From Promethearchaeia archaeon (lineage in GTDB: Archaea; Asgardarchaeota; Lokiarchaeia; Sigyniarchaeales; SOKP01): a stretch of 29,919 nt of DNA. The stretch's first letter is position 1; every line of letters begins with the position of its first letter. The stretch spans positions 1 through 29,919 of the forward strand of contig JAHQWG010000030.1 in assembly GCA_029856045.1 (NCBI GenBank), read 5' to 3'. A program made the position numbers and the translations under genes. Of the stretch, positions 3,772 through 29,919 are shown piece after piece. A model generated the notes under the pieces. That model was not told where the DNA came from. It ran no database searches and saw only the letters and a list, made by a program, of their open reading frames with translations.

Positions 3772-3815
3772 AATCAGATCAACTTTATATTTTTTATATT
3801 TTTTAATTTCATTTA

Positions 3816-3823
3816 TTTATAAA
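3816..3823 (-). promoter_or_regulatory. Putative archaeal TATA box (TTTATAAA) for ald; identical copy at 6501-6508 for the 5748..6440 gene
   Basis: The minus strand reads CAAAA-TTTATAAA about 45-60 bp upstream of the two leftward start codons. The AT-rich background limits certainty. Confidence 0.45.
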
Positions 3824-3903
3824 TTTTGAACTAAATTATATCTATCTAAAGAAACTTTAATTGAGAATAACTCACTTCTATTTGAAAATTCAATTGTTTT
3901 ATA

Positions 3904-4062
3904 ATGAATAAAAATGAATTTATTATTTATCGTAAAGGAAATATTCCATTAATCTTATCTGTCCCGCATGGAGGTATAAATAAATTCGAGGATATCTTAC
4001 TTGAAAAAAAAGATGGTATAAAAGGAACAGATAAAAATACAATCAAAATTGTATTTAAATAA
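3904..4062 (+). pseudogene. 5' fragment (52 aa) of the N-formylglutamate amidohydrolase-like gene
   Basis: Translates MNKNEFIIYRKGNIPLILSVPHGGINKFEDILLEKKDGIKGTDKNTIKIVFK*, matching MNKNIFIICNKGNIPLILSVPHGGTNKFEDILHERESGIKGIDKNTIQIALK at 6589. Absent from the ORF track. Confidence 0.92.
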
Positions 4063-4129
4063 TTAAATATATATGTTTAATTATAAAAAAAAAGAGATAA
4101 ATAAAATAAAATAAAATTTGATATTTTTC

Positions 4130-5515
4130 TTAAACTTCAAGAACTTCTTCGGGAATTGATTTACAAATCTCTTTTATATCGATGCCTTTCTTTTTAAGCA
4201 TTTTGACTCTATAGAAGTAGTAAATAATTGATAATCCATAAAATATAGCAACAGCAATAACTATTATGGGAGAATATCCAATCATAATGATCATGCTAAA
4301 AACAGAATAACTGAGATTAAAAATCGTCAATGTTATTACTGTTTTTTTTGAAAGTTTAAATTTTGATTTTTCGACTAATTCTGGGTATTTTTTCTCCAAA
4401 TTGAGAGGAATATATGCAATAATTAAACTTGGGATCGTCATTGCAAAACTAATAAAGATTGATAAATCTATAATACTTGCCTGTAAAACTAGAAATAAAC
4501 AAGAACCAATTGTAAAAAATATCAACGCCCAATACGGAGTACCATATTTTTTATGAACTTTTGCAAAAATTGAAGGAAGAATGTGATCTCGAGCAGCGGC
4601 GTATAAATCTCTTGAATAAGCTAAAATAATTCCATGAATTGTAGATGCTATTGCAATTAAAATCATAATATTTAAGATATTTAGAAAAAACGGAGGAAAA
4701 AATAATGCACCAACATCAATTAGTGTACCTTCTGTTTCACCTAAAGTTTGCCAATTCATAACACCTGTCATTACAATAGAAATTAAAATATATACAACTG
4801 TTATTAGAATTATACTTAAAATTATCGCTATAGGAATATTTTTTCTTGGATTTTTAATTTCTCCACCAATCTCTATAACAGCTTGAAATCCTGCATATGA
4901 AAAACTTAAAATTATCGCACCTATAAAAATTCCCATGATACCGGTTGGAAAAAGTCCCCCTTCTGCATCAACCAAATTAGCCGGATTTACATTAGGTAAG
5001 CCAAAAATTATGAATATAAATATTACAAGAAAATCTCCTAATATTGCTAAAATTATTTGAACCCAGCTAGCAAACTTTACTCCAAAAAGATTTACAAGAA
5101 AAAATATAATTAAAATAATTATTGATATAATATACGCGCTTTCCGGAATATACATTTCAAAATAAGTTCCAAATCCTAATGCTAACAGTGCTAATGCTCC
5201 TACAATATTTAATAATATTGAAACTGCTACTATATATCCAGCAAATGGCGATGCTAAGCGGGAAGAATAAACCCAAGCGCCACCACTAACTGGGAAAGCA
5301 GAGACTATATAACAAATAATTATCGCCATTATTGCATTAGGAATGCCTGCAATAATAAAAGCCAACCATAATGCTGGTCCTGTTTCTCCTGCAGTTACAC
5401 CAGTTTGAATTAAAATTCCTGCACCTACAACATACCCAAAAATGAAAAATACAACGGCTCCCAATCCCAACTCACGCTTTAATTTTTCTTCTGAATTATT
5501 TTCTTTTTCAGCCAT
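4130..5515 (-). CDS. APC-family amino acid permease
   Basis: LKRELGL, VGAGI (TM1), FPVSGGAWVY, SYAGFQ..GGEIKNPRKNIP, SRDLYAAARD..LP, GTPY; about 12 TM; GAGGT RBS upstream. Confidence 0.93.
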   Translation of the reverse strand: MAEKENNSEEKLKRELGLGAVVFFIFGYVVGAGILIQTGVTAGETGPALWLAFIIAGIPNAIMAIIICYIVSAFPVSGGAWVYSSRLASPFAGYIVAVSILLNIVGALALLALGFGTYFEMYIPESAYIISIIILIIFFLVNLFGVKFASWVQIILAILGDFLVIFIFIIFGLPNVNPANLVDAEGGLFPTGIMGIFIGAIILSFSYAGFQAVIEIGGEIKNPRKNIPIAIILSIILITVVYILISIVMTGVMNWQTLGETEGTLIDVGALFFPPFFLNILNIMILIAIASTIHGIILAYSRDLYAAARDHILPSIFAKVHKKYGTPYWALIFFTIGSCLFLVLQASIIDLSIFISFAMTIPSLIIAYIPLNLEKKYPELVEKSKFKLSKKTVITLTIFNLSYSVFSMIIMIGYSPIIVIAVAIFYGLSIIYYFYRVKMLKKKGIDIKEICKSIPEEVLEV

Positions 5516-5747
5516 AATTATTAACCTCTAAATGATAATTAAGGGTTTATTAAATAATATTTAACTATTTGTAAAAATTTAGTTTTTTGATCTGATGTAT
5601 TAATCGTTAAAATCGATTTAATATTAAATGCCTTTCGATTTTCAAAATAAAAATGAGATAAATTCGTCCCAATTTTTGTTTTATCCTTGGATTTTCTTAT
5701 TTACGGCGTAAAAACGAATCTTTATATTCGAGAATGTTTTTTCATAT

Positions 5748-6440
5748 TTACAAAGCTTGTTTGTAAAATTCAATTATTTTGTCTAAAGATTTATTCGGAA
5801 TTTCCCCATGAATTCCATCTATCTTTATTGCTGGTAAATCAAACATATTTGCGGCAATATTTCCCAAACTTTTAATATCTTTTATATCTTTTGCAGCGAA
5901 TATTATTGTTTTCTCCTTCATATCTTTTATTAAATTTTTATCAATGCTTTTAAAAACCGCTGGATCAATAAGAACTATGCCCACAATACGACTTAGTAAA
6001 GTTTTATTACTTCCTAAAAATTCAATAAATTGATGTCCACCCATTGAAAAACCAATAATCCCTAATTTCGAATTTGAATTAATTAGATCCAAAATAACAT
6101 CAAGTTGATATAAATATTTACTTCCAGTTCGATCGGGTCTAAAAAAATGTGGATTAATGACAACTAATCCCCAATTTTTCTCGTTAAAAGCTCGAAAATA
6201 GGGCTCCATGCTTGATTTATCTATCAAATTCTTTCCTAATAATGTGTTGGACCAAACTCCTGCTTTCTCGGGATAACCAAGTGCTATTATGCATACAAAT
6301 TCCTTATCCAAAGCATCCGGAGTTAAAAGAATGAAATACTTTTTCCCGCTTACATCATCAATAAATTCTTTTTTTTCGGCCAACTTTGACTCAAGTAAAT
6401 GTTCAATAATTTTATTTATAATCTCATCAAATTTTTTCAT
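5748..6440 (-). CDS. Alpha/beta-hydrolase-fold protein, Arb2/FAM172A(ARB2A)-like
   Basis: GFSMGG nucleophile elbow and a C-terminal His (GIHGE). FILLTPDAL...AGVWS..L......SMEPYF......WGLVVINP follows the Arb2-domain pattern recalled from FAM172A. Confidence 0.75.
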   Translation of the reverse strand: MKKFDEIINKIIEHLLESKLAEKKEFIDDVSGKKYFILLTPDALDKEFVCIIALGYPEKAGVWSNTLLGKNLIDKSSMEPYFRAFNEKNWGLVVINPHFFRPDRTGSKYLYQLDVILDLINSNSKLGIIGFSMGGHQFIEFLGSNKTLLSRIVGIVLIDPAVFKSIDKNLIKDMKEKTIIFAAKDIKDIKSLGNIAANMFDLPAIKIDGIHGEIPNKSLDKIIEFYKQAL

Positions 6441-6490
6441 AAAATTTCAAAACCTTTTTTTTTAAAATATTTGTTTAACTAATTGTAAAT

Positions 6491-6747
6491 ATTTCATTTA
6501 TTTATAAATTTTGAACTAAATTATATCTATCTAAAGAAACTTTAATTGATAATAACTCACTTCTATTTGAAAAATCAATTATTCCATGATGAATAAAAAT
6601 ATATTTATAATTTGTAATAAAGGAAATATCCCTCTAATTTTATCAGTTCCCCATGGGGGTACAAATAAATTCGAAGACATCTTACACGAGAGAGAATCGG
6701 GAATAAAAGGAATAGATAAAAATACAATCCAAATTGCATTAAAGTTA
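6491..6747 (+). repeat. Direct repeat copy 2 (of 3806..4062)
   Basis: See copy 1; this copy continues into the intact gene. Confidence 0.95.
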
Positions 6748-7347
6748 AAAGAATCAATTAAATATTATAGTCAAGAAAAATTTAAAACCCAAATAACTCC
6801 CTCATTAGTCTTTTCAAATGTTCATAGAAGTCGAATAGACTTTAATAGACCGCCTAGCGAAGCATACCCAGCCGATTCTAAATTATCTGAAAAAGTATAT
6901 AATGATTTTCATGAAAATCTGAAAAAATTACTTTTATATAATTTTCAAAATTGGAAAGTTTCATATCTAATTGATATTCACGGTTTTGAAAAGTCCAAGA
7001 GACCCCCCGGCTTTATGAATGTAGAGATTGTAATTGGTACGAAAAATTTACAAACATTATTTCATAAAGGTCAGCCCAAAAATGAGAAACATAAAAATAT
7101 TAGAAATTTAATTATAGAAGAATTACATAATAATAATATTTTTGCTGCACCTGTATGGCCAAGGCAAAAAGAATATGTTCTAACTGGTGGATATATAACT
7201 CAAAAATATGGTGCCGAAAATTATAATTTTTCCAAATCAATGCAAATAGAATTTTCAGATGATATCCGGTATAATGATGAAAAACTATATTTAAAAGTAA
7301 TTCGCATATTATCTAAGACTTTATCTAACTTTTTTTTATCTAAGTAA
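6586..7347 (+). CDS. N-formylglutamate amidohydrolase-family (Zn carboxypeptidase-like) protein
   Basis: LSVPHGG, D..T, RSRIDFNR, YNDFH, LIDIHG, GGYIT, QIEF. The start may be ATG 6589. Confidence 0.8.
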   Translation: MMNKNIFIICNKGNIPLILSVPHGGTNKFEDILHERESGIKGIDKNTIQIALKLKESIKYYSQEKFKTQITPSLVFSNVHRSRIDFNRPPSEAYPADSKLSEKVYNDFHENLKKLLLYNFQNWKVSYLIDIHGFEKSKRPPGFMNVEIVIGTKNLQTLFHKGQPKNEKHKNIRNLIIEELHNNNIFAAPVWPRQKEYVLTGGYITQKYGAENYNFSKSMQIEFSDDIRYNDEKLYLKVIRILSKTLSNFFLSK

Positions 7348-7408: not shown

Positions 7409-10066
7409 ATGACAATAATGAAAAAAAAAGGAAAAATTTCATTAAATGGTGAATGGAGTCTAAAAAATGAAGTAAGATCAATCAATATCCTAGCTTCAGT
7501 ACCCGGCTCGGTGTATGAAGCTTTACTTGAAAATAATCTTATTGAAGATCCATTTTATGGGATGCATGAGCATGAAATGTCATGGATATATGAATCAGAT
7601 TGGCAGTATGAAAAAACATTCGATGTTTCTGACGATTTATTAAAGTATGAGAATCTAATTCTCCGATTTAATGGTATTGATACAATTTCAGAAATTGAAC
7701 TAAATAATATTCATATTGGAACAACGAGTAATATGTTCCGTAGTTATGAATTTGATGTAAAGGATTACATAAAAAACACGGGTAACAGAATAAAAGTTAT
7801 TATTCATAGTCCAACACAAAGAGCTCGTGAAGAAATTGAAAAATATGGTCATCGATTAAAAGAGGCTCCTGATGCTATTCCTGGAGTTCCATTTCTTAGA
7901 AAAGCACAATATTCTTTTGGTTGGGATTGGGGACCTAAGCTGCCAGATATAGGAATATGGAAACCCATCGAATTGATTGGTTTCGATAAAATCAGAATCG
8001 ATTCTGTATATATTATACAAAATTTTACATACAATAAGGATCCACTAAAAATTGCAAATCCAAAAGATATCGAGGATATTAAAGTTGAATTAGTTAATTT
8101 ACAGATTCAAATAGAATTGGATTCAAGCATTTTTTCAATGAATTCTAACCAAGATGTGAATCCTGAAGTTAATGGATATTTTGCGAATGTAATTATAATA
8201 TCTCCTGAGGAGGAAGAAATATCTCAAGAAGTTGAGATTAAGAATAAATCAATTTCTCTTGAGATAAATATTAAAAAACCCCAGTTATGGTGGATCTATG
8301 AGCTTGGAAAACCATATCTTTATGAAATCCAAGTATTTATTAAGAAAAATGATGTCATTATAGATTCACAAACGCACAAAATTGGAATCCGTGAAATCCG
8401 TCTTGTTCGAAATGAAGATAAATGGGGGGAGACCTTCTATTTTTTACTTAATGGAGTGCCTATATTTGCAAAGGGTGCAAATTGGATTCCAGTCGACAGT
8501 TTCATTCCCCGGGGAAAACGATTAGGGCTTTATTCAATGAATTTGAAATATGCAAAAAAGGCAAATATGAACATGATTCGTGTTTGGGGTGGTGGGATCT
8601 ATGAGGATGATCTTTTTTATGATCTTTGTGATGAATTGGGATTATTGGTCTGGCAGGATTTTCCTTTTGCATGTGCACTTTATCCCTATACTTCCGAATT
8701 TATTGATAACTTTAAAGAAGAAGCAATACAAAATATCAAACGTCTTCGTAATCATGCCAGTTTGGCTTTTTGGTGTGGAAATAATGAAAATGAATGGTTG
8801 ATGGAGTTATATTTATCGAATATTTTTAAATCAGACTCAAACAAACGACGTCAATACAAAAAAGATTATATGGAACTATTTGAAAAACTTCTTCCAGAAT
8901 TGATTAATGAGTATGATCCTCAGCATGATTATTGGCCTAGTTCACCTTCCAATGGAGGAATCTTTAGGGAGGGGGGTAGAGATTTATTGAACCCAAATTC
9001 TCCTGATAGAGGTGATTCTCATTATTGGATGGTTTGGCATGCTGGAAAACGATTTTCTGCTTATCGTAAATTCAATTCAAGATTTATGTCAGAATTTGGA
9101 TTTGAATCATTTCCATCAATGAAGACTATATCTTCTTTTTGCCCATCTGACCAATTTGATTTATATTCACCAATTATGGAAAATCATCAGAAAAATGCAG
9201 CTGGAAATAAGAAAATCCTAAGGTATATGAAGAAACGGTTCATAATCCCTAAAAAGTTTGAAAATCAAGTCATTTTATCTGAAATCACCCAAGGAGAGGC
9301 TATCGAATATGGAGTAGAACATTGGCGTCGCAATCGTAACAAATTTCATTGCATGGGGGCTCTCTATTGGCAATTAAATGATTGCTGGCCGGTTGTGTCG
9401 TGGAGCTCTTTAGACTATTTTGGGCGATGGAAAGCTCTCCATTATTTTAGCAAAAGAATTTATCAACCAATTTTTCCTAGCGTTAAAGAAGATAAAGAAT
9501 CTATCGATTTCTGGATAACAAACGATTTAAGAACTTCTTGTGAGTTTATATTAAATTGGAAAATTATGAATTCTGCTGGAATGGTGCTAAAGCATGGTTC
9601 ATTTAATTCAGAAATTTTTCCATGCACTTCATTAAAAGCAGGAACTATTACTGTGAGTGAAATAAATAGAGACGAGATAAAGAGACAAAACAATGTGGTT
9701 TTTTTCAAATTAAAATATATACAAAATGGAGAAAAGATAATATCTCATGGATTTCGATTGTTTGATGCTCCAAAAAAGTTTAATCTGCTTAATCCTGAAC
9801 TTTCATATAATTTTGAAGATGTTTCTTTAGGTGAAAGTAATATAAAATTAAAAATTCAAAATAAAAACATTGCTTTTTATGTATTCATAGATTCTGGATT
9901 AGTGGATTTCATAGCTTCTGATAATTTTTTCTCTATGGAGCCAAATGAATCAAGAATAATTACGTTATGTAACATTAAACCAATTAATCATGAGAAAAAG
10001 CTTTCAAAACAAGAAATTCGGGATTCCATAATAATTCGATCTTTGTTTGATTTAATTAGAAATTAA
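7409..10066 (+). CDS. Beta-mannosidase, glycoside hydrolase family 2
   Basis: RKAQYSFGWDWGP, KGANWIP, NMIRVWGGG, WQDF, WCGNNE (acid/base), RFMSEFG (nucleophile), YWQLNDCWP. Confidence 0.93.
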   Translation: MTIMKKKGKISLNGEWSLKNEVRSINILASVPGSVYEALLENNLIEDPFYGMHEHEMSWIYESDWQYEKTFDVSDDLLKYENLILRFNGIDTISEIELNNIHIGTTSNMFRSYEFDVKDYIKNTGNRIKVIIHSPTQRAREEIEKYGHRLKEAPDAIPGVPFLRKAQYSFGWDWGPKLPDIGIWKPIELIGFDKIRIDSVYIIQNFTYNKDPLKIANPKDIEDIKVELVNLQIQIELDSSIFSMNSNQDVNPEVNGYFANVIIISPEEEEISQEVEIKNKSISLEINIKKPQLWWIYELGKPYLYEIQVFIKKNDVIIDSQTHKIGIREIRLVRNEDKWGETFYFLLNGVPIFAKGANWIPVDSFIPRGKRLGLYSMNLKYAKKANMNMIRVWGGGIYEDDLFYDLCDELGLLVWQDFPFACALYPYTSEFIDNFKEEAIQNIKRLRNHASLAFWCGNNENEWLMELYLSNIFKSDSNKRRQYKKDYMELFEKLLPELINEYDPQHDYWPSSPSNGGIFREGGRDLLNPNSPDRGDSHYWMVWHAGKRFSAYRKFNSRFMSEFGFESFPSMKTISSFCPSDQFDLYSPIMENHQKNAAGNKKILRYMKKRFIIPKKFENQVILSEITQGEAIEYGVEHWRRNRNKFHCMGALYWQLNDCWPVVSWSSLDYFGRWKALHYFSKRIYQPIFPSVKEDKESIDFWITNDLRTSCEFILNWKIMNSAGMVLKHGSFNSEIFPCTSLKAGTITVSEINRDEIKRQNNVVFFKLKYIQNGEKIISHGFRLFDAPKKFNLLNPELSYNFEDVSLGESNIKLKIQNKNIAFYVFIDSGLVDFIASDNFFSMEPNESRIITLCNIKPINHEKKLSKQEIRDSIIIRSLFDLIRN

Positions 10067-10252
10067 ATTCATTTAACTTTTTTCAAAAGACTCGAGGGAT
10101 CCCTAATTATTTTGAATGAGAATAAATAAAATTAAAATTAGTAAGAATTAATAAAAATAAAATTATATATAGATAAACTGGTTAATTATTGATCATTTTA
10201 ATTCTTTCCAGATTAAGGAATAGAAGTAGCATCTTTAAAATAATTGAGTTTA

Positions 10253-11449
10253 ATGTCGCAACAAAATTTTGATTATGATGTTAGTATAATTGGTGGAGGT
10301 CCAGGTGGATCTACTGCGGGTTATTTATTGAGTAAGCTCGGACTTAATGTACAAATAATTGATAAGGATATTTTTCCACGACAAAAGCTATGTGGAGGCA
10401 TAATTACTTTTAAAACCCTTGACCTGTTAAATAGGTTATATAAAGAAACAACGGACACTCTTCTGGATAAAAATATTATAAATTATCACACAAATCGTTT
10501 TGAAATTAATTATAAAGTAAAAAGAATAATGTCAATAAATATTTCTAAGTTTCCTTTTTACTTAGTGGATAGGCGCGTGTATGATAATTTCCTCTTGAAT
10601 AAAGCGAAGGAAGCAAGTGTAGATGTAATTGAAGGAGATGAAGTAATAAAAGTAAATTTAGAAACTTGTGAAATTAATTTGTCGAAAGGTGATAAATTTA
10701 AAACGAAATTAATCATCGGTGCTGATGGGGCTAATAGTATAGTAAAGCAAGAATTTATACGTAATGGAATAATTAGAAAAGACAAATGGAATTATAATTT
10801 AGCTACAGGGCTTGAATGTTTTATTGATAGAAATAATTTAGAAAAAGGTCTTTTTAAATATCCTATAATTTCATTTGGATTTTTAAGATATGGATATAAT
10901 TGGTTATTTCCAAACAAAAACCAGGTAATCGTGGGTGTAGGGGGCCTCAATAGAAAAAATAAAGGTCTTTTCAAAAGAACATTAAATAGATTCATAACTG
11001 CTTTGAAAATAAATCCCGATGTCGTCTCTAGAGTATCAGGACATCCCATTCCTTATGGAAATTTCCACATTACCCCTATATATAAAAATAATATAATTTT
11101 AATAGGTGATGCAGCGGGTATTGCTGACCCGTTTTGGGGAGAAGGTATATATTACACTCAAAAAACCGCAGAGTATGCGTCTTTAGCAATTTTAAAAAAT
11201 TTAAAAAATTTAAAAAATTCTACCATCCTCTATTTACGTCTATTAAGTAAGTATATTTATTCGGAGTTAAGATATGCAATGAAGTTGAGATGGTTTATTT
11301 TTAATCCAATAAATTCCTTTTTTAGTTATTATCCCACACATCTAATGTTAAAATTAATGAGAAACAAATTAATAGAAATAACACACGGGATAAGATCCTA
11401 TAGATGGGGCATGAAAAAATTTTTTAAACTTGGAACATATCTTCAATGA
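10253..11449 (+). CDS. Geranylgeranyl reductase-family FAD-dependent oxidoreductase
   Basis: IIGGGPGGS, FPRQKLCGG, GADGANS, YNWLFP, GDAAG..DPFWGEGI. ATG 10253 is preferred over TTG 10244. Confidence 0.88.
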   Translation: MSQQNFDYDVSIIGGGPGGSTAGYLLSKLGLNVQIIDKDIFPRQKLCGGIITFKTLDLLNRLYKETTDTLLDKNIINYHTNRFEINYKVKRIMSINISKFPFYLVDRRVYDNFLLNKAKEASVDVIEGDEVIKVNLETCEINLSKGDKFKTKLIIGADGANSIVKQEFIRNGIIRKDKWNYNLATGLECFIDRNNLEKGLFKYPIISFGFLRYGYNWLFPNKNQVIVGVGGLNRKNKGLFKRTLNRFITALKINPDVVSRVSGHPIPYGNFHITPIYKNNIILIGDAAGIADPFWGEGIYYTQKTAEYASLAILKNLKNLKNSTILYLRLLSKYIYSELRYAMKLRWFIFNPINSFFSYYPTHLMLKLMRNKLIEITHGIRSYRWGMKKFFKLGTYLQ

Positions 11450-11462
11450 AATTATGTAAAGG

Positions 11463-12896: not shown

Positions 12897-12950
12897 ATTG
12901 ATTTCAATTTGATGTTATTTTTTGATTTTTTATCCTATGAAATTTAAATT

Positions 12951-19883: not shown

Positions 19884-19985
19884 TTTTTATTACGTTTATT
19901 TAAGTTGGTAAATCTAATAAGATATTAATTAAAATAAATATTGATTTAAATCAATTTTATTTTAAAAAATTTTTTTTGAAAGAAG

Positions 19986-20771: not shown

Positions 20772-20821
20772 AAAAAATGAATTAAATTAGTTAAATTTAT
20801 TAATTTTTTAAGTAAAATGAA

Positions 20822-21550: not shown

Positions 21551-21886
21551 ATCTTCGGTTTGTTATATGAATCAAAATTAATATAAATATAATCTAGAGA
21601 CATTTAAAGATATCGGAATTGAAATTTCAATACAAAAATCAAAAACTTCATGTTATTTATTTATATTTCTTTTAACCCAAATCCTCATCTTAAATTAACT
21701 TATTATATTGAATACAATTTAAATTTAATGAAATCATCTTGTATGACCGCCCTTTTTAATTAAATCGATGAATCTTCATACTTAATATCCTTTATAAATG
21801 TTATTAAAGTTAAATTTGTAATTAATGTAATTAAAAAAAAGAATTGTCTTGTTTTGCTAGATATGAGTTTTCATAACAGAATTGTA

Positions 21887-22603
21887 TTATTCAAGAGCTT
21901 GAAAAAACTTTCGGAATTCCTTTAATTCAGAATCATACTCTATTATTTGTAACAAGGGAAAAAAAGTATTTAAAACCAGATATGGTCTAATAACTTCTTT
22001 ACTTTCAAGATTTTCTTGATGGATGATATCTTCTAATTCTTTCTTAAATTTCGTGATTCGTTCTTCGTAGAATTCGCGCCCTTTTTCAGAAAGAAACCAG
22101 AAATCATAATTTATTAGGGTTTTAAAATGCTTATCTTGAAAATCTTTAAAAATCTTTGGTTTAAATTTCATACTCTTGCTGATTAACCCTTCATAATACA
22201 AGATTGCTTGCTCAAAAAGAATTTTAATAATCTTGAAAAAAAGCATGTCATTTAACATTACATCATTAAGAACTTCTCTATCTTTACTTGATTTAGATAA
22301 TGTGATTTTATCTGTCTCTAAATATAATTTTTCAAGAAAATTTGGAGATAGTTCATAAACTTTAGCATCAATAGAACCACGTGCTTCTTTCCTAGTAGAT
22401 TTTATTAAGCCTAGATTATCTAGTATCCCCATGTGATGGGTTATTGTAGATTTAGCTCTCCCTAATAACTGACTTAACTTGGTCAAGCTTACCTTCTTAA
22501 ATATTAAAAGTGATAAGATTATCCTAAGTCGAGTGAGGCTTTCCATTAATCTTAAAACTTCGATTCTTAGTTTTAAATTCTTTTTTGAATAATTTTGATC
22601 CAT
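21887..22603 (-). CDS. ArsR-like winged-helix transcriptional regulator with a C-terminal extension
   Basis: TRLRIILSL....SLTKLSQLLGRAKSTITHHMGILDNLGLI....KVYEL; divergent from the GRE gene. Confidence 0.85.
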   Translation of the reverse strand: MDQNYSKKNLKLRIEVLRLMESLTRLRIILSLLIFKKVSLTKLSQLLGRAKSTITHHMGILDNLGLIKSTRKEARGSIDAKVYELSPNFLEKLYLETDKITLSKSSKDREVLNDVMLNDMLFFKIIKILFEQAILYYEGLISKSMKFKPKIFKDFQDKHFKTLINYDFWFLSEKGREFYEERITKFKKELEDIIHQENLESKEVIRPYLVLNTFFPLLQIIEYDSELKEFRKFFQALE

Positions 22604-22844
22604 TGTTCTTTAAAAACTAAATTTCTTATGAGTTCAGTATTAAAAACATAATGATTTTATGTTTTTATTTAGTTTTATTTATGATTTTTATACTTTATTA
22701 TAAATTAAGATTTCTCCTAATAATAAACTATTCAATTTATAAAAATAAATTCGAAAATCTTTAATTAATTTCTTATAAAAATGATTTTCTTTAGAATAGT
22801 TTCATTTGTTATATAAAATCTTACCATATTTTAGACTATGTATT

Positions 22845-22873
22845 TGTTCAATTTTTAGGTTCATATTTGAACA
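22845..22873. promoter_or_regulatory. Candidate operator upstream of the GRE gene
   Basis: GTTCA-tatt-TGAAC at 22859-22872, plus an upstream TGTTCAA half-site that pairs with TTGAACA. Confidence 0.35.
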
Positions 22874-22952
22874 TTAGAATCCTTTTTAAATGATTACAAC
22901 ATTTAAATAGAATTAATGATTATTTATCATTATTTATTGTAAAATTAAAGAA

Positions 22953-25466
22953 GTGAATAATGTGAGTGATTTTAAGGAAAATTTAAGATCTAATGGGAAA
23001 GAAATAAGATTTCCGGTTGCACAGGCTCATGATTTGCTACCTCGATCAAAGTGGCTTCGCGATTATTATTTTTCAGGTCATGAAAGAAAATGGAATAATC
23101 TTGCTATGTTTTTTACTACTGGTGTTGACTGGGATGTTATTTTATATGAGGGTGAGTTTTATCCAGCACCAGAAGTTTTAGATATGATTGGGATCAAGGG
23201 TAAAGGAGTGTATTATTCTGGAGAATCAATGGCCATAACAGTAAAATTACCAGACAATTTTTGGGAGCTATCATTGCCCGAACGTAGAGCAATTTTCTTT
23301 GAAACTGTTATATTAGATTACGTTCCAAAAGAAATTATTTCAGAAAATGATTTGATCGCAGGTGGACGTTTCAACACATGGCTTAGTCGATGTTTAGATA
23401 AAAAGCAAGTAAAACCATATTGGAAACAAGCTTTCAAAAATCGAAAGATTATAAGAGAATTTCATAATAACGGTTTTGGAAATTTTGGAGCAACAGGAGG
23501 GCATATTATTTGTGATCATGAAACTGTCGTGAAAAAGGGATTTAAATATATTTATGAAAACATAAAGGAGCATTATGAAAAATTAACCAAGAATGAGAAA
23601 AAAGGACCAAAAGGTAATCAATTAAGAGCAATGATGCGTTCAGCAGAAATTCCAAGAAAACTTGCTAAGAAATATGCTGATAAATGTCGTAAATTGAAAG
23701 AAACTGCTTCTACATCTGAAAGAGCTAAAGAACTCGAGCAAATGGCAAAAAATCTCGAACGTGTCCCTTGGGAACCAGCAGAAACATTTTGGCAAGGAGT
23801 CCAAGCAATTTGGTTAACTCATATGCTTATAATGGCTGAGGAATCATTTCCAGGAGCAGGAACTTCGTTTGGACGTTCTGATCAGCATCTTTGGCACTTG
23901 TACAAAAAAGACGTATTGGACGAAAAGAACATAACAAAAGACTTTGCTAAGGAAATTTTAGGTAGTTTCTGGTTCCATTGCCATACTGCATATGATGCAT
24001 TTATGATATTAGGTGGAAAACATGGGGTTAATTCTTCTTTTGGTCAATTGATTACACTTTCTGGATGTGGTCCCAATGGTGAGGATCTCACGAATGAATT
24101 AACTTATACAATTTTAGAAGTCGTTGATGAATGGTATCCCAGTCTGGAGCCAAAACCTAATGTGAGACTCCACAGAAATTCACCAAAACGGTTATTAGAT
24201 GTTATAGTCGATATGATTGCTCGAGCTCAAGGGAGTCCTTTCTTGTTAAATTTTGATGAAAGAAGTATCGCTGGAATGGTGTTAGAAGGTATTCCTGAAG
24301 ATGAAGCTTGGGATTATGGTGTCGTCGGTTGCTTGGAAAATACGATGCAAGGAAATGATCGTTCCGGTACTGTAAATTGTAATCCGGACTTGGCGAAGAG
24401 TATTGAATTAACGTTATGGAATGGAAAAAACATGCCAAATGATGATCCAAAGAAATCTAAAAAACAATTTGGTCCGAAAACAGGAGATCCAGAGAAGTTT
24501 GAGACATGGGAAGAATTCTGGGATGCATGGGTTAATCAAATTCAATTTATAATTAAACATACCGCTGAAAATTATAATCATTTAGAGCAGTTGAGATCAG
24601 AATTTTTACCCACTCCTTATGTATCCACAATTATAAGGGGATGTGCTGAAAAAGCGTTAGATGTGCGTAGTGGAGGCCCAGAATTAAGATTTATCACAAT
24701 TGAAGGCGTAGGATATGCTACAACTGTAGATTCATTATTAGCAATTAAAAAGTTTGTGTATGATGATAAAAAGTATACCATAGCGCAAATTAAAGAAGCG
24801 TTATTAAATGATTATAAAGGAAATAAAGACCAATCAATAATGCAAACAATGCTTCAAATGAAAGCCCCTAAATATGGTAATGATGATGATGAAATTGATG
24901 AGATCGGAAGAAAAATAATGGAAACTTGGTGTAATGAATGTTGGAAATACAAAACCCCTAATGATTTCCAATTTAGACCAGGAATGTTATCTTGGAATTA
25001 TTGGGCAGGTCCAGATGCTTTAAAATGCGTTGCTACTCCCAATGGAAGAAATTCTGGAACCTTTTTATCAAATGCAATTTGTCCATCTACAAGTGCAGCA
25101 AATAGTGGTCCTACTGCGGTGACTAATTCTGTTGGTAAGGTGATAGGAGGAAAAACCGAAGATAACAAGTATGTGAATTATTTACCTAATGGGACGAGTC
25201 ATACAATTACTTTCAACCCAAGTGTATTTTTTAGAGATAAAGAACACAAGGAGAAATTCAAAGCATACCTACGTGGATATATTGAAAATGGGGGAACATC
25301 ATTGCAAATTAACATGGTAAGTACTGATATGCTTCGAGATGCTCAAAAAAAACCCGAAGATTATAAAGAGTTATTGGTTAGGGTTACTGGATACAATGCT
25401 TATTTTGTTACCATTGGAAAAGAATTACAAGAAGAAATAATATCAAGAGATATGCATGCAATTTAA
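22953..25466 (+). CDS. Glycyl radical enzyme (PFL superfamily; non-PFL, CxE type), substrate unknown
   Basis: Gly loop LLVRVTGYNAYF; Cys loop VGCLEN (single Cys followed by Glu, not the PFL CC pair); SFGRSDQ, PKYGNDD, ATPNGR. GTG start at 22953 or 22962. Confidence 0.95.
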   Translation: MNNVSDFKENLRSNGKEIRFPVAQAHDLLPRSKWLRDYYFSGHERKWNNLAMFFTTGVDWDVILYEGEFYPAPEVLDMIGIKGKGVYYSGESMAITVKLPDNFWELSLPERRAIFFETVILDYVPKEIISENDLIAGGRFNTWLSRCLDKKQVKPYWKQAFKNRKIIREFHNNGFGNFGATGGHIICDHETVVKKGFKYIYENIKEHYEKLTKNEKKGPKGNQLRAMMRSAEIPRKLAKKYADKCRKLKETASTSERAKELEQMAKNLERVPWEPAETFWQGVQAIWLTHMLIMAEESFPGAGTSFGRSDQHLWHLYKKDVLDEKNITKDFAKEILGSFWFHCHTAYDAFMILGGKHGVNSSFGQLITLSGCGPNGEDLTNELTYTILEVVDEWYPSLEPKPNVRLHRNSPKRLLDVIVDMIARAQGSPFLLNFDERSIAGMVLEGIPEDEAWDYGVVGCLENTMQGNDRSGTVNCNPDLAKSIELTLWNGKNMPNDDPKKSKKQFGPKTGDPEKFETWEEFWDAWVNQIQFIIKHTAENYNHLEQLRSEFLPTPYVSTIIRGCAEKALDVRSGGPELRFITIEGVGYATTVDSLLAIKKFVYDDKKYTIAQIKEALLNDYKGNKDQSIMQTMLQMKAPKYGNDDDEIDEIGRKIMETWCNECWKYKTPNDFQFRPGMLSWNYWAGPDALKCVATPNGRNSGTFLSNAICPSTSAANSGPTAVTNSVGKVIGGKTEDNKYVNYLPNGTSHTITFNPSVFFRDKEHKEKFKAYLRGYIENGGTSLQINMVSTDMLRDAQKKPEDYKELLVRVTGYNAYFVTIGKELQEEIISRDMHAI

Positions 25467-26376
25467 AGAGATGAAAAAAATGTCAACAAAAAAATTTACT
25501 GAGGTATGGAAAAAAGAATTAAGTAAAGAAGCATGTGATTTTACTCAAAATTTGACGATGATAAAATTGGTATCCACTATTGATGATAAAGGATGGCCAC
25601 ACATTACTTTTATTTCAAATAATAAAGCAAAGTCTCCCAATCAAATCGTATGGGGAGAATTTATGCATGGAAAATCAAAAAGATATATCCAAGATAATCC
25701 TAAACATGGATATTTTTATATGTCTGGAGAGAAACCTTTAAGGATGTTGCAAATCAAAGCTAACTTTTCACACATCCTAAAGGCAGGAGAAGATCTCGAT
25801 GAATTTAATAATTCATCTACGATGCGATATAACAATACCGTGAATGTTTGGAGAGCATTCTATGGTAATGTCGTTTCAGTTTCACCATTTCAAAAGATAT
25901 CAATTGGTAAACTCATAAAAGGGATAATTTTCAGTATGTGGGCAAAAGGGGCTGCAAAATCGGGAATGACTGAAGAACGCCTTGATCAATTTGGTAAAGG
26001 GATCTTCACTGGAGCAATGAACCCAAAATTTTTGGCATTTATAGACCCAGATGATGGCTATCCAATAGTTTTACCTTGCTTCCAAGCAATTGCTGCTGAT
26101 TATACACGTTTAGTCTTTCCACCTACGATGTTTAAGGAACAATTAGCATACATCCCTGAAAATAGTAAAGTTGCAGTATATGGACTAAATTCAGAATTTA
26201 TCGCACAAACGGTAAAAGGTACATTTCTTGGATACAAGAAATATCGAGGAGTTACCTTGGGTTCGGTTAATATTGAAGAAGTTTATAATGCTGGACCACC
26301 TTTACCTGGCGTTATTTATCCAGAAATTGAAGTACTCCCAGAAGTTACAGATTTTGAAATGCCTATAATAAAATAA
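25456..26376 (+). CDS. Tandem split-beta-barrel (pyridoxamine 5'-phosphate oxidase-like) protein
   Basis: Two related segments, KLVSTIDDKGWPHITF...KSKRYIQDNPK and KFLAFIDPDDGYPIVLP...IPENSKVAV, resemble the PNPOx-like LAT.D.DG.P / K..N...NP.V pattern. The start may be 25471 or 25480. Confidence 0.7.
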   Translation: MQFKEMKKMSTKKFTEVWKKELSKEACDFTQNLTMIKLVSTIDDKGWPHITFISNNKAKSPNQIVWGEFMHGKSKRYIQDNPKHGYFYMSGEKPLRMLQIKANFSHILKAGEDLDEFNNSSTMRYNNTVNVWRAFYGNVVSVSPFQKISIGKLIKGIIFSMWAKGAAKSGMTEERLDQFGKGIFTGAMNPKFLAFIDPDDGYPIVLPCFQAIAADYTRLVFPPTMFKEQLAYIPENSKVAVYGLNSEFIAQTVKGTFLGYKKYRGVTLGSVNIEEVYNAGPPLPGVIYPEIEVLPEVTDFEMPIIK

Positions 26377-26459
26377 TTATTATCTCATTTTTTTTTAATT
26401 TTGTAATAAAATTACTTATAGATTAAATTTAATTTTGAATATTTATGTCCACTTTTTAG

Positions 26460-27425
26460 ATGGTGGTTTTGAAGGTGACAGAAGTACATAAAGGATTAAT
26501 TTTTGAGATTTTAAAAATGTCAACTGAGGATGGACCGGGACTTCGGACTACGGTCTTTTTCAAACAATGTCCTCTAAGATGTATATGGTGCCATAACCCA
26601 GAATCTATCTTAAAAAAGCGTCAATTAGAATGGTTTGAGCATAAATGTATTGGATGTAAAATTTGTATCGAAACCTGTCCTAATGGGGCTCTATTATTAA
26701 ATGAGAATGGAATGCATATTGATAGAGATAAATGCCAGAGTTGTGGGAAATGCGTAGAAGAATGTCCAAGTACTGCCCTCCATATGTGGGGTGAATGGTG
26801 GAGTCCCAACGATCTTTTCTATGAAATTCAAAAAGATAAAATTTATTACTCTGAATCGAATGGAGGTATAACTGTTTCTGGGGGAGAACCCACCCTTCAA
26901 GCAAATTTTATTATTGAATTCTTAAAGAAATGCAAAGAAAATGGTATTTCAACAGCTTTAGACACATGTGGCATAGCAAATAGAAATGTCTATGAAAAAA
27001 TTTTGCCATTTACAGATTTAATTCTTTTAGACATTAAAGAAAGTGATAGTAAAAAACATCTTGAATTTACAGGTGTTCAAAACGAAGTCATCTTAAATAA
27101 TGCTATTTGGATGGCACAATATGTAGAAAAAAATGAAAAAAAACTTTGGATTAGAACTCCAATCATTCCAAATTATACTGCAACAGAGGACAATATACTT
27201 GGAATTGGACAATTTATTGTTAACAAATTGAAAAATATTCCTAGTAGGTGGGATTTATTAAGCTTTAATAATTTATGCAAATCTAAATATGAGCGATTAG
27301 ATTTGGATTGGCCATTAAAAAATGAGCCCCTAATGAAAAAAAGAGATGTGGAAGATTTATTTAACCTTGCCAAAAGTACTGGTGTAAAAAATGTTCATTG
27401 GTCAGGGTTAGCAAGAAAAGATTAA
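26460..27425 (+). CDS. Glycyl-radical enzyme activating enzyme (radical SAM) with a 2x[4Fe-4S] ferredoxin insert
   Basis: EDGPGLRTTVFFKQCPLRCIWCHNPE; CIGCKICIETCP and CQSCGKCVEECP; GITVSGGEP; LDTCG; RTPIIP. Confidence 0.95.
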   Translation: MVVLKVTEVHKGLIFEILKMSTEDGPGLRTTVFFKQCPLRCIWCHNPESILKKRQLEWFEHKCIGCKICIETCPNGALLLNENGMHIDRDKCQSCGKCVEECPSTALHMWGEWWSPNDLFYEIQKDKIYYSESNGGITVSGGEPTLQANFIIEFLKKCKENGISTALDTCGIANRNVYEKILPFTDLILLDIKESDSKKHLEFTGVQNEVILNNAIWMAQYVEKNEKKLWIRTPIIPNYTATEDNILGIGQFIVNKLKNIPSRWDLLSFNNLCKSKYERLDLDWPLKNEPLMKKRDVEDLFNLAKSTGVKNVHWSGLARKD

Positions 27426-27452
27426 ATGAATTTTTAATTAAATTATGAAATA

Positions 27453-28007
27453 TTGTTTATGCCTAAAAATAAGAAGAAACTTTTTAAAAAAATAGTTGAA
27501 ATTGAATATCAAATGTTTGAAAATGTTAGAACAAACCAACGATCTTTATGTCAAGATAATCCTGGGGCATTTAAGTTAATGAGGGAAATGAATCACAATG
27601 TATTATCTTATGAAACGCTTAAATCTTACCTCAACGATTTAAAAGATGCAAACTCAAAAGATAGGAATCTTATGACTGAAAAATATGCCCGAATGGGCAA
27701 TTTAATTCCGCCAATTAAAGATAATCCCTTGATCCAAGAAATTGTGTCTATAGAATTGGAGTGGATGAATAATTTATCGAAACAATATCCCTTAAGTATA
27801 ATTCATAAACCAAATTATTTTTCGAAATATCTTTCATGTGAATTAGAAACTTATTCTGATAAATCAATTGAATTATATTTCAACGATGTTCAAACTGCGA
27901 AGAAAAATGGAGTGAGTTTGGCAAAAGATAAATTCGAATATCTCGCTAAAAAATTGGGATATTCTTCTTTAAAGGAATTAGAATCTAAAAGAAAATTAGA
28001 TTTTTAG
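27453..28007 (+). CDS. DUF4125-like protein
   Basis: IVEIEYQMF..V....CQD.P..F..MR.....LKSY..DL..A....RNLMTEKYARM and YL.CEL.TYS pattern, recognised from memory. The start is probably ATG 27459. Confidence 0.75.
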   Translation: MFMPKNKKKLFKKIVEIEYQMFENVRTNQRSLCQDNPGAFKLMREMNHNVLSYETLKSYLNDLKDANSKDRNLMTEKYARMGNLIPPIKDNPLIQEIVSIELEWMNNLSKQYPLSIIHKPNYFSKYLSCELETYSDKSIELYFNDVQTAKKNGVSLAKDKFEYLAKKLGYSSLKELESKRKLDF

Positions 28008-28160
28008 GGTAAATAGTAATATACTTTTTATTTATCAAATAACTTATTCGCTTACTTTTAAAAAACAAATGAAGTCTATTTTTTTTATAAGGTATAACAA
28101 TAGAGTGTATTTTTAAATCAATAAATAAACCTTATTTTTAAAAAAATTATAAATCTTATT

Positions 28161-28217
28161 CCGATTAAAATCGTGATTATCTCAATCCTAAAAATGTTGG
28201 ATTTCGCGAGTAATCGG
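28161..28217. other. Bulged stem-loop / imperfect inverted repeat
   Basis: Nested arms CCGATTA/TAATCGG, TCGTGA/TCGCGA and AATCC/GGATT. Confidence 0.55.
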
Positions 28218-28241
28218 GCAAAGAATTTGAAAACCGTCATT

Positions 28242-28412
28242 TTATTGTCATTTGATAACTTATATGCCTTAAAATATGAACGTTTAGACATAGACTGGCC
28301 CTTAAAAGACAAGGGTTTAATGACTAAAGAAGAAGTCGAAAATTTATTCGAGATCGCAAGGTCAACTGGGGTTAAGAATGTACAATGGTCGGGACTTACT
28401 AAAAAAGAATAG
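28242..28412 (+). pseudogene. 3' fragment (56 aa) of a second GRE activase allele
   Basis: LLSFDNLYALKYERLDIDWPLKDKGLMTKEEVENLFEIARSTGVKNVQWSGLTKKE* vs 27255..27425: 37/56 aa identical, ungapped, same stop position. Confidence 0.93.
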
Positions 28413-28429
28413 ATGAGCTTTTTATTTTA

Positions 28430-28629
28430 CACTAATTTTTCACAACAAGTCCTCGTTTTCTCTAATAGCGGATAATATCTCGTTAAAAACCTCGTGATAT
28501 ACCTTGCTGCCAAAAAATTTCTTAAACCAACACAACGAGCTAACAATCTTTTCCAGATTTTCTTGGATACAGCAATTAAAGAAGCTTATTAACAGTAGTT
28601 CTATCGCTTCTTGTTGTGAAAAATTAGTA
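28430..28629. mobile_element. 200-bp MITE with 19-bp perfect terminal inverted repeats, flanked by TA (IS630/Tc1-mariner-like)
   Basis: ACTAATTTTTCACAACAAG (28431-28449) and CTTGTTGTGAAAAATTAGT (28610-28628); TA at 28428-28429 and 28630-28631; no transposase inside. Confidence 0.85.
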
Positions 28630-29189
28630 TAAGCGGTAAGGATATTTCAGTTGCAAAAAAACTTGAAAAATTATTGGCTGAAGTTGTTCACATTCTTCTA
28701 AATGGGAAACCAGTTATTGCAGCAATTAATAATAGGGCGTTAGGTGGGGGTCTTGAAATACCTCTGTTTTGCGATTATAGAGTTGCACTTAATGAAGGTT
28801 ATTACCAAATGCCAGAAATTCTTATAAACGTTTTTCCTGGAACAGGCTGTATAACTCAGATGGTTCGCACGATAGGTCCGTTATTGACAAAAAAGATACT
28901 AATGTGGGGTGAAAAACTTACGCCAGAACAAGCTTTAAATTTTGGATTAATAGATGAGCTTGTGAATACCATGGATGAATTAATGGCAGTCGCTATGGAA
29001 AAGGCAAAATTTCTTTCTTCAAGAAATCAGGCGGTAATTAACGGTATAAGGCTGTGTGCAAATCATGTCTGGGAAAAAATTTATGATGAGGCCTATAAAA
29101 TGGAGAATTATTGTAGTAACTGGTTTGAAATTGGAAAATAAGGCTTTATATCTAAATTTAAACAAGAGTTTAATTTAGAAGAAAAATAA
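28630..29189 (+). pseudogene. Enoyl-CoA hydratase copy B: 5'-truncated, with a premature stop
   Basis: Ungapped match to 20212..20771 (offset 8418), missing the first ~75 codons. GAA>TAA at 29139-29141, after which GFISKFKQEFNLEEK* continues to the original stop. Confidence 0.95.
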
Positions 29190-29239
29190 TAAAAAAAAAT
29201 GAATTTAAAATTTATTAAATTCTACGCTATAATAGATGA

Positions 29240-29542
29240 TTAACCTAATCCAAGCATTGCTAAGACATCTTTTGATTCCATTAGAATCTCCATCTTAGCC
29301 TTAAAACCCTCAATAGTAAAATATGTTGAATATCGTTTCCCAATTGCCTTCATTGCCTCCATGATTTTATCATCTGGAACCTCATAAAGTACATAACCCT
29401 TAGTATCATAATCCATTACTACGAATCGATGGATTGGTTTTACAAAATCTGGATATTTTGCTTGTTTTCCTGAAGCATGTAATTTCACATATTCTTCTCC
29501 TTTATGAGGTGGAAGTATTGTGGTTACTAAAATAAATACCAT
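29240..29542 (-). CDS. Small hypothetical protein (100 aa), possibly ferredoxin-like alpha/beta (DUF3303-like)
   Basis: Clean ORF with a GAGGT RBS, and a paralogous C-terminus at the window end supports it being coding. The fold is inferred from the strand/helix pattern. Confidence 0.7.
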   Translation of the reverse strand: MVFILVTTILPPHKGEEYVKLHASGKQAKYPDFVKPIHRFVVMDYDTKGYVLYEVPDDKIMEAMKAIGKRYSTYFTIEGFKAKMEILMESKDVLAMLGLG

Positions 29543-29715
29543 AACTTATTTTTACCTCTATTATTTTTTTTGTTCAACAAAGGATATTAGAGCAAAGGAA
29601 TTATTTTTTCTCAAATATAAAAGGTTTTACTTTTTTATCAAAAATTATAATAAAATAAGCAATAATTAGAAGTAGGAGAAATAAAGTTACCATCCTTTTC
29701 ATCAATTGATTTTTG

Positions 29716-29820
29716 AATTACTATCATCACTGACTTGAAATTAGGAAAGAGGATTTGATATTGAAATTTAAAAAGGAGTTTTATTTAGAAGAAAGAAAAA
29801 AAAAAAACGAATTTAAAATT
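29716..29820 (+). pseudogene. Enoyl-CoA hydratase copy C: eroded 3' tail plus downstream A-run
   Basis: NYYHH*LEIRKEDLILKFKKEFYLEER vs NYCSNWFEIGKEGFILKFKKEFNLEEK (17/27 aa), followed by an A-run + GAATTTAAAATTT as after copy B. Confidence 0.85.
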
Positions 29821-29858
29821 TTTATAATATTTCTGGTTTCATTTGCTTTATTGAAATG

Positions 29859-29919
29859 TTAAGCAAGTCCTATCATTGCTAATGCATCTTTCGATTCTAG
29901 TAGGGGGATTAATTTATAT
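29859..29919 (-). CDS. C-terminus of a paralogue of the 29240..29542 protein (runs off the window)
   Basis: Minus-strand YKLIPLLESKDALAMIGLA* vs AKMEILMESKDVLAMLGLG*. Confidence 0.8.
   Translation of the reverse strand, partial: YKLIPLLESKDALAMIGLA

Follow-up and report, generated by a model that had tools for sequence, protein, structure and literature searches.

Gene-end repeats around metabolic cargo genes in a Loki-type Asgard archaeon and their likeness to known recombination footprints

Homology-facilitated illegitimate recombination (HFIR), or additive integration, was reportedly described in naturally transformable bacteria by de Vries and Wackernagel in 2002 and by Prudhomme et al. 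in 2002. Islands with a tyrosine recombinase insert at the 3' or 5' end of a gene (of the tRNA, guaA or dusA type) and restore the gene end. A further footprint, the insertion with long target duplication, is said to have an earlier source in Nobusato et al. of 2000. It has been described for restriction-modification (RM) genes, mostly in competent bacteria, with listed repeats that are approximately 93-100% identical (e.g., 417/423, 384/412 and 388/397), and the authors, in whose repeat-flank screen no archaeal RM system survived, connect the event with the DNA breaks that RM enzymes make (Furuta, Abe & Kobayashi, 2010; PMC2853133). The term HFIR occurs in passages of PMC2884548 and PMC6336857, and passages of the latter also cover the orphan C-terminal/immunity arrays of Rhs/CdiA. 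The literature on mobile DNA of Asgard archaea, as represented by PMC8813620 and PMC11529989, centres on viruses, plasmids and integrase-bearing elements, and does not describe the footprint considered here. Here we describe contig JAHQWG010000030.1 of a Promethearchaeia archaeon (Promethearchaeota, Loki-type Asgard), the whole 29,919 nt of which are referred to as the window, in which the ends of metabolic genes are found a second time, as truncated copies or relics, in the same orientation as the intact genes. At two of these loci, the cargo genes between the intact gene and its relic are insertions into single-copy targets. We consider it probable that genes gained from related Asgard lineages left the relics behind as recombination scars, with homology on one side of the incoming DNA and a non-homologous joint on the other.

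Four same-strand repeats of gene ends

The window is the entire contig C29 (29.8% GC) of a 55-contig, 3.34-Mb metagenome-assembled genome (MAG; GCA_029856045.1, referred to as G000) with an estimated contamination of 3.5%, and was compared with three other genomes of the same genus (i.e., G001, G002 and G004, which together with G000 make four genomes of the genus). Gene identities were obtained with Pfam and NCBIfam for all open reading frames (ORFs) of the window, and repeats with self-BLAST, tblastx and tblastn. Exactly four same-strand repeat pairs were found by self-BLAST, with nothing comparable in inverted orientation, and all four gene-end relics that an initial annotation of the sequence had placed on the same strand as their parents were thus recovered. 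Pair (a), from an amidohydrolase gene, comprises 3806-4058 and 6491-6743 (253 nt, 85.8% identity), and pair (b), from an enoyl-CoA hydratase (ECH) gene, comprises 20208-20806 and 28626-29221 (599 nt, 87.8% identity). Pair (c), from the activase gene of a glycyl-radical enzyme (GRE), comprises 27255-27434 and 28242-28421, with 66.7% amino acid identity over 60 residues by tblastx and an E-value of 2e-22 by tblastn against the genome. Pair (d) comprises 29105-29284 and 29715-29903 (70.8% identity), and the second of these copies, which holds a short ECH tail referred to as tail C, is also matched by the ECH tail itself (20701-20786 to 29729-29816, 79.5%). The E-values exclude a chance origin of the four pairs. 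No further copies of the repeated sequences were found elsewhere in the 3.34-Mb genome, and the four pairs of the 30-kb window compare with approximately 24 candidate loci in the 3.34 Mb. The features of the four pairs, their cargo and their flanks are as follows.

2656-3771, minus strand: ald, alanine dehydrogenase (Pfam AlaDh_PNT), 92-93% nt identity to G001, G002 and G004; native left flank of event (a)
3806-4062, plus strand: relic A, 98 nt of promoter-like non-coding DNA and the first 52 codons of an FGase-type amidohydrolase (ORF 3904-4062)
4059-6490, minus strand: cargo A, 2432 nt, APC permease and Arb2-like genes
4130-5515, minus strand: APC amino-acid permease (Pfam)
5748-6440, minus strand: Arb2-like gene (Pfam)
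6491-7347, plus strand: intact amidohydrolase with its promoter, a congener-like "type I" allele; repeat copy 6491-6743
6586-7347, plus strand: FGase-type amidohydrolase gene itself (Pfam FGase)
19024-19934, plus strand: substituted segment upstream of ECH, holding the next ORF
19089-19883, plus strand: 264-aa ORF without family
19986-20806, plus strand: intact ECH and 35 nt, mosaic; repeat copy 20208-20806
19986-20771, plus strand: ECH gene itself (Pfam ECH_1, crotonase fold)
20807-28625: cargo B, 7819 nt, from the 242-aa ORF through ArsR, GRE, 306-aa ORF, activase, DUF4125 and activase relic to the terminal-inverted-repeat (TIR) element
20822-21550, minus strand: 242-aa ORF without family
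21887-22603, minus strand: ArsR-type regulator (Pfam/NCBIfam)
22953-25466, plus strand: GRE (Pfam/NCBIfam)
25456-26376, plus strand: 306-aa ORF without family
26460-27425, plus strand: radical-SAM GRE activase (Pfam/NCBIfam)
27453-28007, plus strand: DUF4125 gene (Pfam/NCBIfam)
28173-28412, plus strand: relic (c), 3' end of an activase gene in a 79-codon ORF, downstream of DUF4125
28428-28631: element of approximately 200 bp with perfect 19-nt TIRs, ACTAATTTTTCACAACAAG, and TA on both sides
28626-29221, plus strand: relic B, ECH from codon 75 to the end and 35 nt; resident-type allele, now decaying
29240-29542, minus strand: small gene 1, 100 aa, convergent with ECH
29715-29828, plus strand: tail C, the last approximately 30 ECH codons and the terminator region; an older relic
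29859-29919, minus strand: C-terminus of the second small gene, a paralogue of small gene 1, cut by the contig end

The Nei-Gojobori omega of relic versus parent is 0.155 for (a), with a dS of 0.86, and 0.127 for (b), with a dS of 0.45, while pair (c) has a pN of 0.225 and a saturated pS of 0.855. With omega between 0.13 and 0.16, the copies therefore diverged as working genes under purifying selection and not as duplicates decaying in place, in agreement with the initial annotation. It had also reported the window to be free of integrases and transposases, and neither domain was found by Pfam or NCBIfam in any ORF of the window. The relic array that it described as pattern (d) is present, but the small genes of the array lie on the minus strand and are convergent with ECH, which corrects the earlier description.

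Cargo inserted at single-copy targets

In G001, G002 and G004, ald directly adjoins the amidohydrolase promoter, the repeat is present in one copy, and the APC and Arb2-like genes are not at the site. The congener matches to "ald plus relic A" and to "promoter plus amidohydrolase" overlap by exactly the 253-nt repeat. ECH directly adjoins the small gene in the same three genomes, where the 7.8-kb GRE cargo is not at the site, and both ECH repeat copies of G000 map to one 597-nt stretch of G004, which is the overlap of the G000-to-G004 matches. Both adjacencies, ald beside the amidohydrolase and ECH beside the small gene, had been predicted from the sequence of the window. Cargos A and B are insertions into single-copy targets.

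Relic B, which lacks ECH codons 1-74, is 94-95% identical to the ECH of the congeners along its full length by sliding identity. The 5' and central part of the intact ECH is 96-99% identical to G001, and its stretch at approximately 20420-20630 is only 78-80% identical to every other copy. In the protein tree, relic B and a JGI variant without its premature stop are grouped with the full-length ECH P0129 of another strain (support 100/98), and the intact ECH is placed in a separate long-branch clade with P0147-P0149 (support 100/99). Relic B is thus sister to P0129 and not to the neighbouring ECH. P0129 differs from relic B at 4 of the 154 comparable residues (start codon excluded) and begins with the N-terminus "MLKNK", the same as that of the intact ECH gene of G000. 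The tree and the congener-like sequence along the full length of relic B suggest that the old resident ECH end was displaced in event (b), as proposed earlier.

Two marks of decay are found in relic B, a premature TAA at 29139-29141 and a change from GGT to AAT (Gly to Asn) in the oxyanion-hole glycine. P0130, on a JGI contig of 1,098 nt, is a relic B variant with the Gly-to-Asn change and without the premature stop; the stop of the window relic therefore arose later, and the population is polymorphic for the relic. Both ECH P0129 and small gene P0139 are recorded with a longest contig of 13,631 nt, and from this shared figure alone we infer an "empty-site haplotype" in another strain.

The TetR-to-ECH interval of the window has no nucleotide homology to G004, G001 or G002. 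Within it, the segment 19024-19934 replaces approximately 1.28 kb of G004/G001 that hold three other ORFs of 145-152 aa, and its own ORF (19089-19883) has a 60%-identical (aa) homologue in G003. Event (b) may have brought in this segment as the left part of its imported DNA. By eye, two of the three replaced ORFs of G004/G001 are SCP2-like and one is TsaA-like. The module of 242-aa ORF, ArsR, GRE and 306-aa ORF is found with approximately 71% identity in other Asgard contigs, where ECH is not adjacent. Contig C8 of G000 (26746-32639) carries a genus-conserved paralogous cluster of GRE, 306-aa ORF, approximately 1.5 kb and activase (71, 51 and 64% amino acid identity), and the imported cluster of C29 therefore duplicates a function that the genome already had. 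An isolated 42-residue glycyl-radical fragment with an internal stop, 71% identical to the C-terminus of the window GRE, lies at 22814-22939 of contig C25 as a further gene-end relic, and no GRE gene adjoins it within the stretch read.

In event (a), the intact repeat copy is 96-97% identical to the target of the congeners, while relic A is approximately 85% and its left flank approximately 95% identical. Relic A represents a "type II" N-terminal allele that agrees at 46/52 positions with intact genes of other strains and at 40/52 with its own parent, both counts being made by eye from alignment output. An earlier view of relic A as decisively foreign, i.e., an outlier versus the congeners, was dropped once intact type II amidohydrolase genes (P0002-P0005) had been found in close relatives. 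Either copy could be the old resident one and the polarity of the event is ambiguous; a donor-ancestry tract is not visible here. The 98 non-coding nt of the repeat are better kept than the 52 codons (92/98 for 3806-3903 versus 6491-6588, or 94%, and 125/156 for 3904-4059 versus 6589-6744, or 80%; Fisher p = 0.003), and the repeat has its longest perfectly identical run, of 58 nt, at its outer edge. Gene conversion between relic A and the amidohydrolase gene is possible. Homology stops abruptly at 4058/4059, the point at which the relic A ORF ends in TAA. Of 134 genomes of the family, only 3 were found to carry the Arb2-like gene. Elsewhere, the type I/type II polymorphism of intact amidohydrolases spans only codons 3 to 43, approximately, which is the stretch under relic A.

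Relic (c) covers the last 56-77 residues of the activase at 56-67% amino acid identity. Over 75-77 residues it is 56% identical to the adjacent activase and 56% identical to the paralogue on C8, and this equal distance suggests that a third activase allele left this remnant.

The order ECH, small gene, ECH tail and small gene of array (d) is found in all four genomes of the genus, and the stack of the window runs from the intact ECH through the GRE cargo, relic B, small gene and tail C to the second small gene. Given that (d) is common to the genus and (b) is lineage-specific, (d) predates the genus and (b) is younger, which agrees with the age-ordered stack of the initial annotation. Small gene 1 is without a Pfam or NCBIfam match. 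It is 61% identical (aa) to the first small gene of the congeners, although its flanks are 78-95% identical, and 44% identical to their second. Across the array, the ECH tails are 74-82% identical (nt) and the small genes between them 44-61% (aa), a pattern that cassette exchange between the repeated tails would fit better than local duplication. The array may continue beyond the end of the contig.

The joint between cargo and relic is abrupt in (b) too, where homology stops at 28625/28626, and a possible AGT/TAA microhomology at the joints is indistinguishable from chance in DNA of 29% GC. The TIR element sits exactly at the joint of cargo B and relic B, between the 3' flank of the activase relic and relic B. 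It has a DNA fold z of -3.2, is single-copy in G000 and was not found in 80 other genomes of the family, and public contigs matched only its 19-mer. Of the features of a miniature inverted-repeat transposable element, it has the terminal repeats and the TA flanks and lacks the multiple copies; with one copy in G000 and none in the 80 genomes, it was not accepted as an established element of this type. A link of the 19-mer to a class-III aminotransferase gene in three Promethearchaeota MAGs was also rejected, for the match stops at 19-21 nt; matches to the 19-mer elsewhere number 8, close to what a rough estimate gives for chance. A transposon may have assisted in forming the right joint of (b). 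Inverted repeats of at least 14 nt were found at the joints of none of 13 other loci, so that such assistance is not the general mechanism. The illegitimate joint at the other end that the initial annotation had proposed would correspond to this abrupt end of homology, with the qualification that the joint of (b) lies at the TIR element.

Spread of the footprint and its possible origins

The initial annotation had suggested a genome-wide search for same-strand relics. Self-comparison of G000 gave approximately 24 loci at which an intact gene is accompanied by a same-strand partial copy within 15 kb, and one nearby inverted pair. Nine further loci were compared with the three congeners. At five of the nine (C8, C27-76k, C36-46k, C1 and C27-454k), at least one congener has contiguous flanks, one repeat copy and no cargo, while the comparison of C49-80k, C49-37k and C51 gave no clear insertion result, relic and cargo being common to G002 at one of them. 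At the seven loci that include (a) and (b), the repeats are 107-599 nt and the inserts 1.6-8.3 kb long, and both repeats align to a single target. Four relic loci were found in 400 kb of the 468-kb contig of G004 and two in 400 kb of a closed 4.36-Mb genome from another family of the order, with no inverted pair among the nearby repeats of either (0/11 and 0/5). The density of 5-10 loci per Mb was measured only within Lokiarchaeia. The gene-end-relic footprint is a property of the lineage and not of one contig.

Identity to the congeners changes along several of these loci. At C27-76k, the left flank and the relic are 89-94% identical, the intact copy is 78% and the outer flank 84-87% identical, and 93% is reached again approximately 1.3 kb further. 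At C36-46k, the flank and the intact copy are 92-94% and the relic and outer flank 85-88% identical, and C1 has the same asymmetry. At these informative loci, one copy and the cargo differ in ancestry from the other copy. The divergent tract runs from the cargo through one repeat copy into the unduplicated flank, a split-ancestry pattern that would be expected of a linear import if homologous recombination resolved it further out. The earlier claim of recombination at a shared gene is supported in the main, except that the crossover need not lie in the shared gene.

Two of the loci deserve a description of their own. At 13000-20000 of C8, a 577-nt duplication (97.7% identity) of the 3' part of a 580-aa gene brackets a 1.6-kb insert; by eye, the 580-aa gene encodes a thiamine pyrophosphate enzyme and the 349-aa ORF of the insert a membrane protein, and this ORF is found at another locus in all three congeners (92-96% nt identity). 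A 7-kb cargo that is 97% identical between G000 (C36:44000-55500) and G001 (C155:14000-28164) occupies positions 1.2 kb apart, lies between 512-nt repeats (86%) in G000 and 59-nt repeats (81%) in G001, and is not at the site in G004; such blocks therefore move between and within these genomes.

Based on these results, we favour a mechanism of one-sided homology. Incoming DNA would carry an orthologue of a resident gene together with adjoining accessory genes. The side of the shared gene, or a region beyond it, would be integrated by ordinary homologous recombination, whereas the cargo side, having no homology, would be joined non-homologously inside or beside the resident copy. One complete and one truncated copy of this anchor gene would then remain in the same orientation with the cargo between them, and repetition of the event at the same anchor would stack relics outward. 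This interpretation, which follows the initial annotation in having DNA of relatives come in, recombine at a shared gene and displace the old end, is supported by the synteny, the dN/dS values and the trees. We infer the one-sided-homology mechanism, the direction of (a) and the route of DNA entry.

Several results weigh against one-sided homology. In (a), it is the truncated copy that departs from the congeners, and displacement of the old end would need a resident allele of type II. Among relatives of the 242-aa, APC and Arb2-like genes, no donor with the anchor gene beside the cargo was found: the relatives of the 242-aa gene, one of which is 91% identical (nt), are not beside ECH, and those of the APC and Arb2-like genes are neither beside an amidohydrolase nor beside each other. 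The intact ECH is chimera-like, its switch to foreign sequence (approximately codons 145-215) lying downstream of the start of the relic (codon 75), and a strictly linear replacement fits this mosaic only where the donor was a close relative that supplied the entire ECH. At its right joint, (b) meets one end of a TIR-bounded element, and this is not a plain microhomology joint. Finally, the 97.7% identical copies of C8 are equidistant from the congeners, as a true duplication would be.

Some of these observations are better accommodated by a Campbell-type insertion, in which a non-replicating circle with the cargo and a fragment of the anchor enters by one homologous crossover and thereby duplicates the segment; the circle could stem from excision from another genome via such repeats or from a circularised incoming fragment. 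A circle of this kind would agree with (a), where the 58-nt perfect run is at the outer repeat edge and the cargo directly follows the foreign-looking part of relic A, with (b), where the intact ECH joins a native-type N-terminal to a foreign C-terminal part and the relic starts upstream of the switch, with the nearly identical C8 copies, and with the 7-kb cargo that lies between direct repeats at each of its two positions. Conversely, the divergent tract of C27-76k and C36-46k reaches the unduplicated flank, which a circle with the repeated segment alone cannot give, and relic B is uniformly resident-like without a foreign-to-native switch. We regard a Campbell-type origin of the footprint as unlikely overall, and single-crossover insertion as a live, if tentative, alternative for some of the loci.

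Much less probable is that a gene end was duplicated in tandem on the spot and then decayed, with the cargo inserted later or independently. A duplication with its left edge in the ECH tail would yield the order of ECH, small gene, tail and small gene seen in (d), and the near identity of the C8 repeats also speaks for such an origin. The values of omega and dS (0.45-0.86), the closer relationship of relics to alleles of other strains than to their neighbours, the congeners with one copy and no cargo at seven loci, and the better conservation of the tails than of the small genes in (d) all speak against it, and for (a) and (b) tandem duplication is largely refuted.

We give equally little credence to site-specific elements that target gene ends, with the integrase lost or acting in trans. 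The succession of intact gene, cargo and displaced end in direct orientation is the product of such islands, and one joint carries the TA-flanked, TIR-bounded element. Nevertheless, no cargo in the window has an integrase or transposase, the target differs at every locus, the repeats (107-599 nt, 71-98% identity) have gradients of identity and no identical core, none of the 13 other loci has a comparable inverted repeat at its joints, and the TIR element is single-copy across 81 genomes.

Least credible of all is an assembly artefact that joined haplotypes of co-occurring strains. In its favour, G000 is a MAG of 55 contigs with some estimated contamination, the contig end falls inside the repeat array, and populations of relatives carry both allele types of the amidohydrolase and of ECH. 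Against it, 5 contigs from four sources (NCBI, JGI, Logan and ENA) hold the exact relic A ORF, and ten JGI contigs hold the identical relic B ORF (the longest of 517,501 nt, a figure also recorded for the ECH' type and the small gene, whose co-location is read from this shared figure), which makes a chimeric assembly unlikely. Furthermore, the relic-to-cargo joints have no long shared repeat able to mislead an assembler, three other MAGs have ECH-tail relics downstream of ECH (in one of them on a 468-kb contig), and the same footprint density is found in the 468-kb contig and in the closed 4.36-Mb genome.

Apart from a few indels, the window is collinear with G004 at approximately 93%. Its other genes, identified with Pfam/NCBIfam, are as follows.

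69-317: MazE/AbrB-like gene
353-1180: methyltransferase
1732-2661: metallo-beta-lactamase fold protein
7409-10066: GH2
10244-11449: FAD enzyme
11463-12896, minus strand: sulfatase
12951-15629, minus strand: GH94-like
15702-16337: ribulose-phosphate epimerase
16392-17861, minus strand: MFS
18167-18844: TetR

An internal 719-nt segment of the methyltransferase gene (441-1159) is without a counterpart in G004, where its flanks are directly joined. At approximately 1691, G004 has an extra 1.9 kb, approximately, between 11-nt direct repeats, and at 12922-12955 approximately 2.0 kb extra that replace 32 nt of G000.

Meaning and comparison with known systems

In the window and at the five further loci, ordinary metabolic genes such as the GRE cluster and the permease pair would have entered without an element-encoded enzyme and left datable scars. 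Such scars would offer a cheap means to find and order recent gene gains in MAGs, would be evidence of recombination between lineages 5-25% apart in sequence, and would indicate that insertion with long target duplication needs no RM genes, contrary to the supposition of its discoverers. Gene acquisition by Asgard archaea is of interest given their position next to eukaryotes. A wider and doubtful possibility is that Loki-type Asgard archaea owe most of their recent gene gain to a recombinase-free route, with any conserved gene beside an accessory block as a portable integration site and with relics as homology handles. By means of such handles, cassettes would be exchanged, cut out as circles and inserted anew, which fits the small-gene cassettes between ECH tails and the 7-kb cargo at two positions. 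A relic could also serve as a source of sequence for the live gene, and the type I/II stretch of the amidohydrolases matches relic A. Were this so, host recombination alone would sustain an integron-like economy of cassettes.

The tyrosine-recombinase islands resemble these loci in the succession of intact gene, island and displaced end in direct orientation, and their tandem accretion can stack relics. They differ in that the loci described here have no integrase, no identical att core, a different target per locus and long diverged repeats. The orphan arrays of Rhs/CdiA are comparable to array (d), in that a new end with its small gene at the anchor pushes the old end and its small gene outward, and relic B, small gene, tail C and small gene form just such an ordered series of 5'-truncated ends, each with a small gene. 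However, toxin or immunity domains are not found here: Pfam and NCBIfam identify the anchor as a crotonase-fold ECH and assign no family to the small gene; furthermore, the small genes are convergent with ECH and not co-directional, and the other anchors are unrelated metabolic genes.

The likeness to insertion with long target duplication is closer. In both, an insert that is shorter than 20 kb and carries no mobility genes lies between direct repeats of variable length, from tens to hundreds of bp, and the two repeats match a single copy at the corresponding empty site in a relative. Here, repeats of more than 30 bp around inserts of less than 20 kb are found at seven loci, and the ORFs of the window contain no mobility genes by Pfam and NCBIfam. 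The published cargo consists of RM genes and the published cases are bacterial, whereas the cargo here is of transport and metabolic genes and the host is an archaeon. Likewise, the repeats here are allele-like with 71-98% identity (71-88% in the window), near identity being found only at C8. A Campbell-type route could underlie insertion with long target duplication.

HFIR, in turn, depends on DNA uptake and RecA/RadA, and its non-homologous joint typically has a microhomology of 3-10 nt. It shares with these loci one homologous anchor and what would here be one non-homologous joint, the addition of foreign DNA without an element-encoded recombinase, probable donors among relatives, and collinear products in which the retained fragment is in direct orientation. 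An insert absent from relatives with collinear flanks is found at (a), (b) and five more loci, and a donor tract that fades to resident ancestry at C27-76k, C36-46k and C1 and, in (b), inside or upstream of ECH. The differences are that the events are read here from genome comparison alone in an uncultured Asgard archaeon, and that the joint lies inside the region homologous to the incoming DNA, so that a relic of the anchor survives. The novelty that the initial annotation saw in the pattern was too strong a claim, given that the footprint is known as HFIR and as insertion with long target duplication: the scars are a known kind of recombination footprint, and not a new mobile element or a new kind of system.

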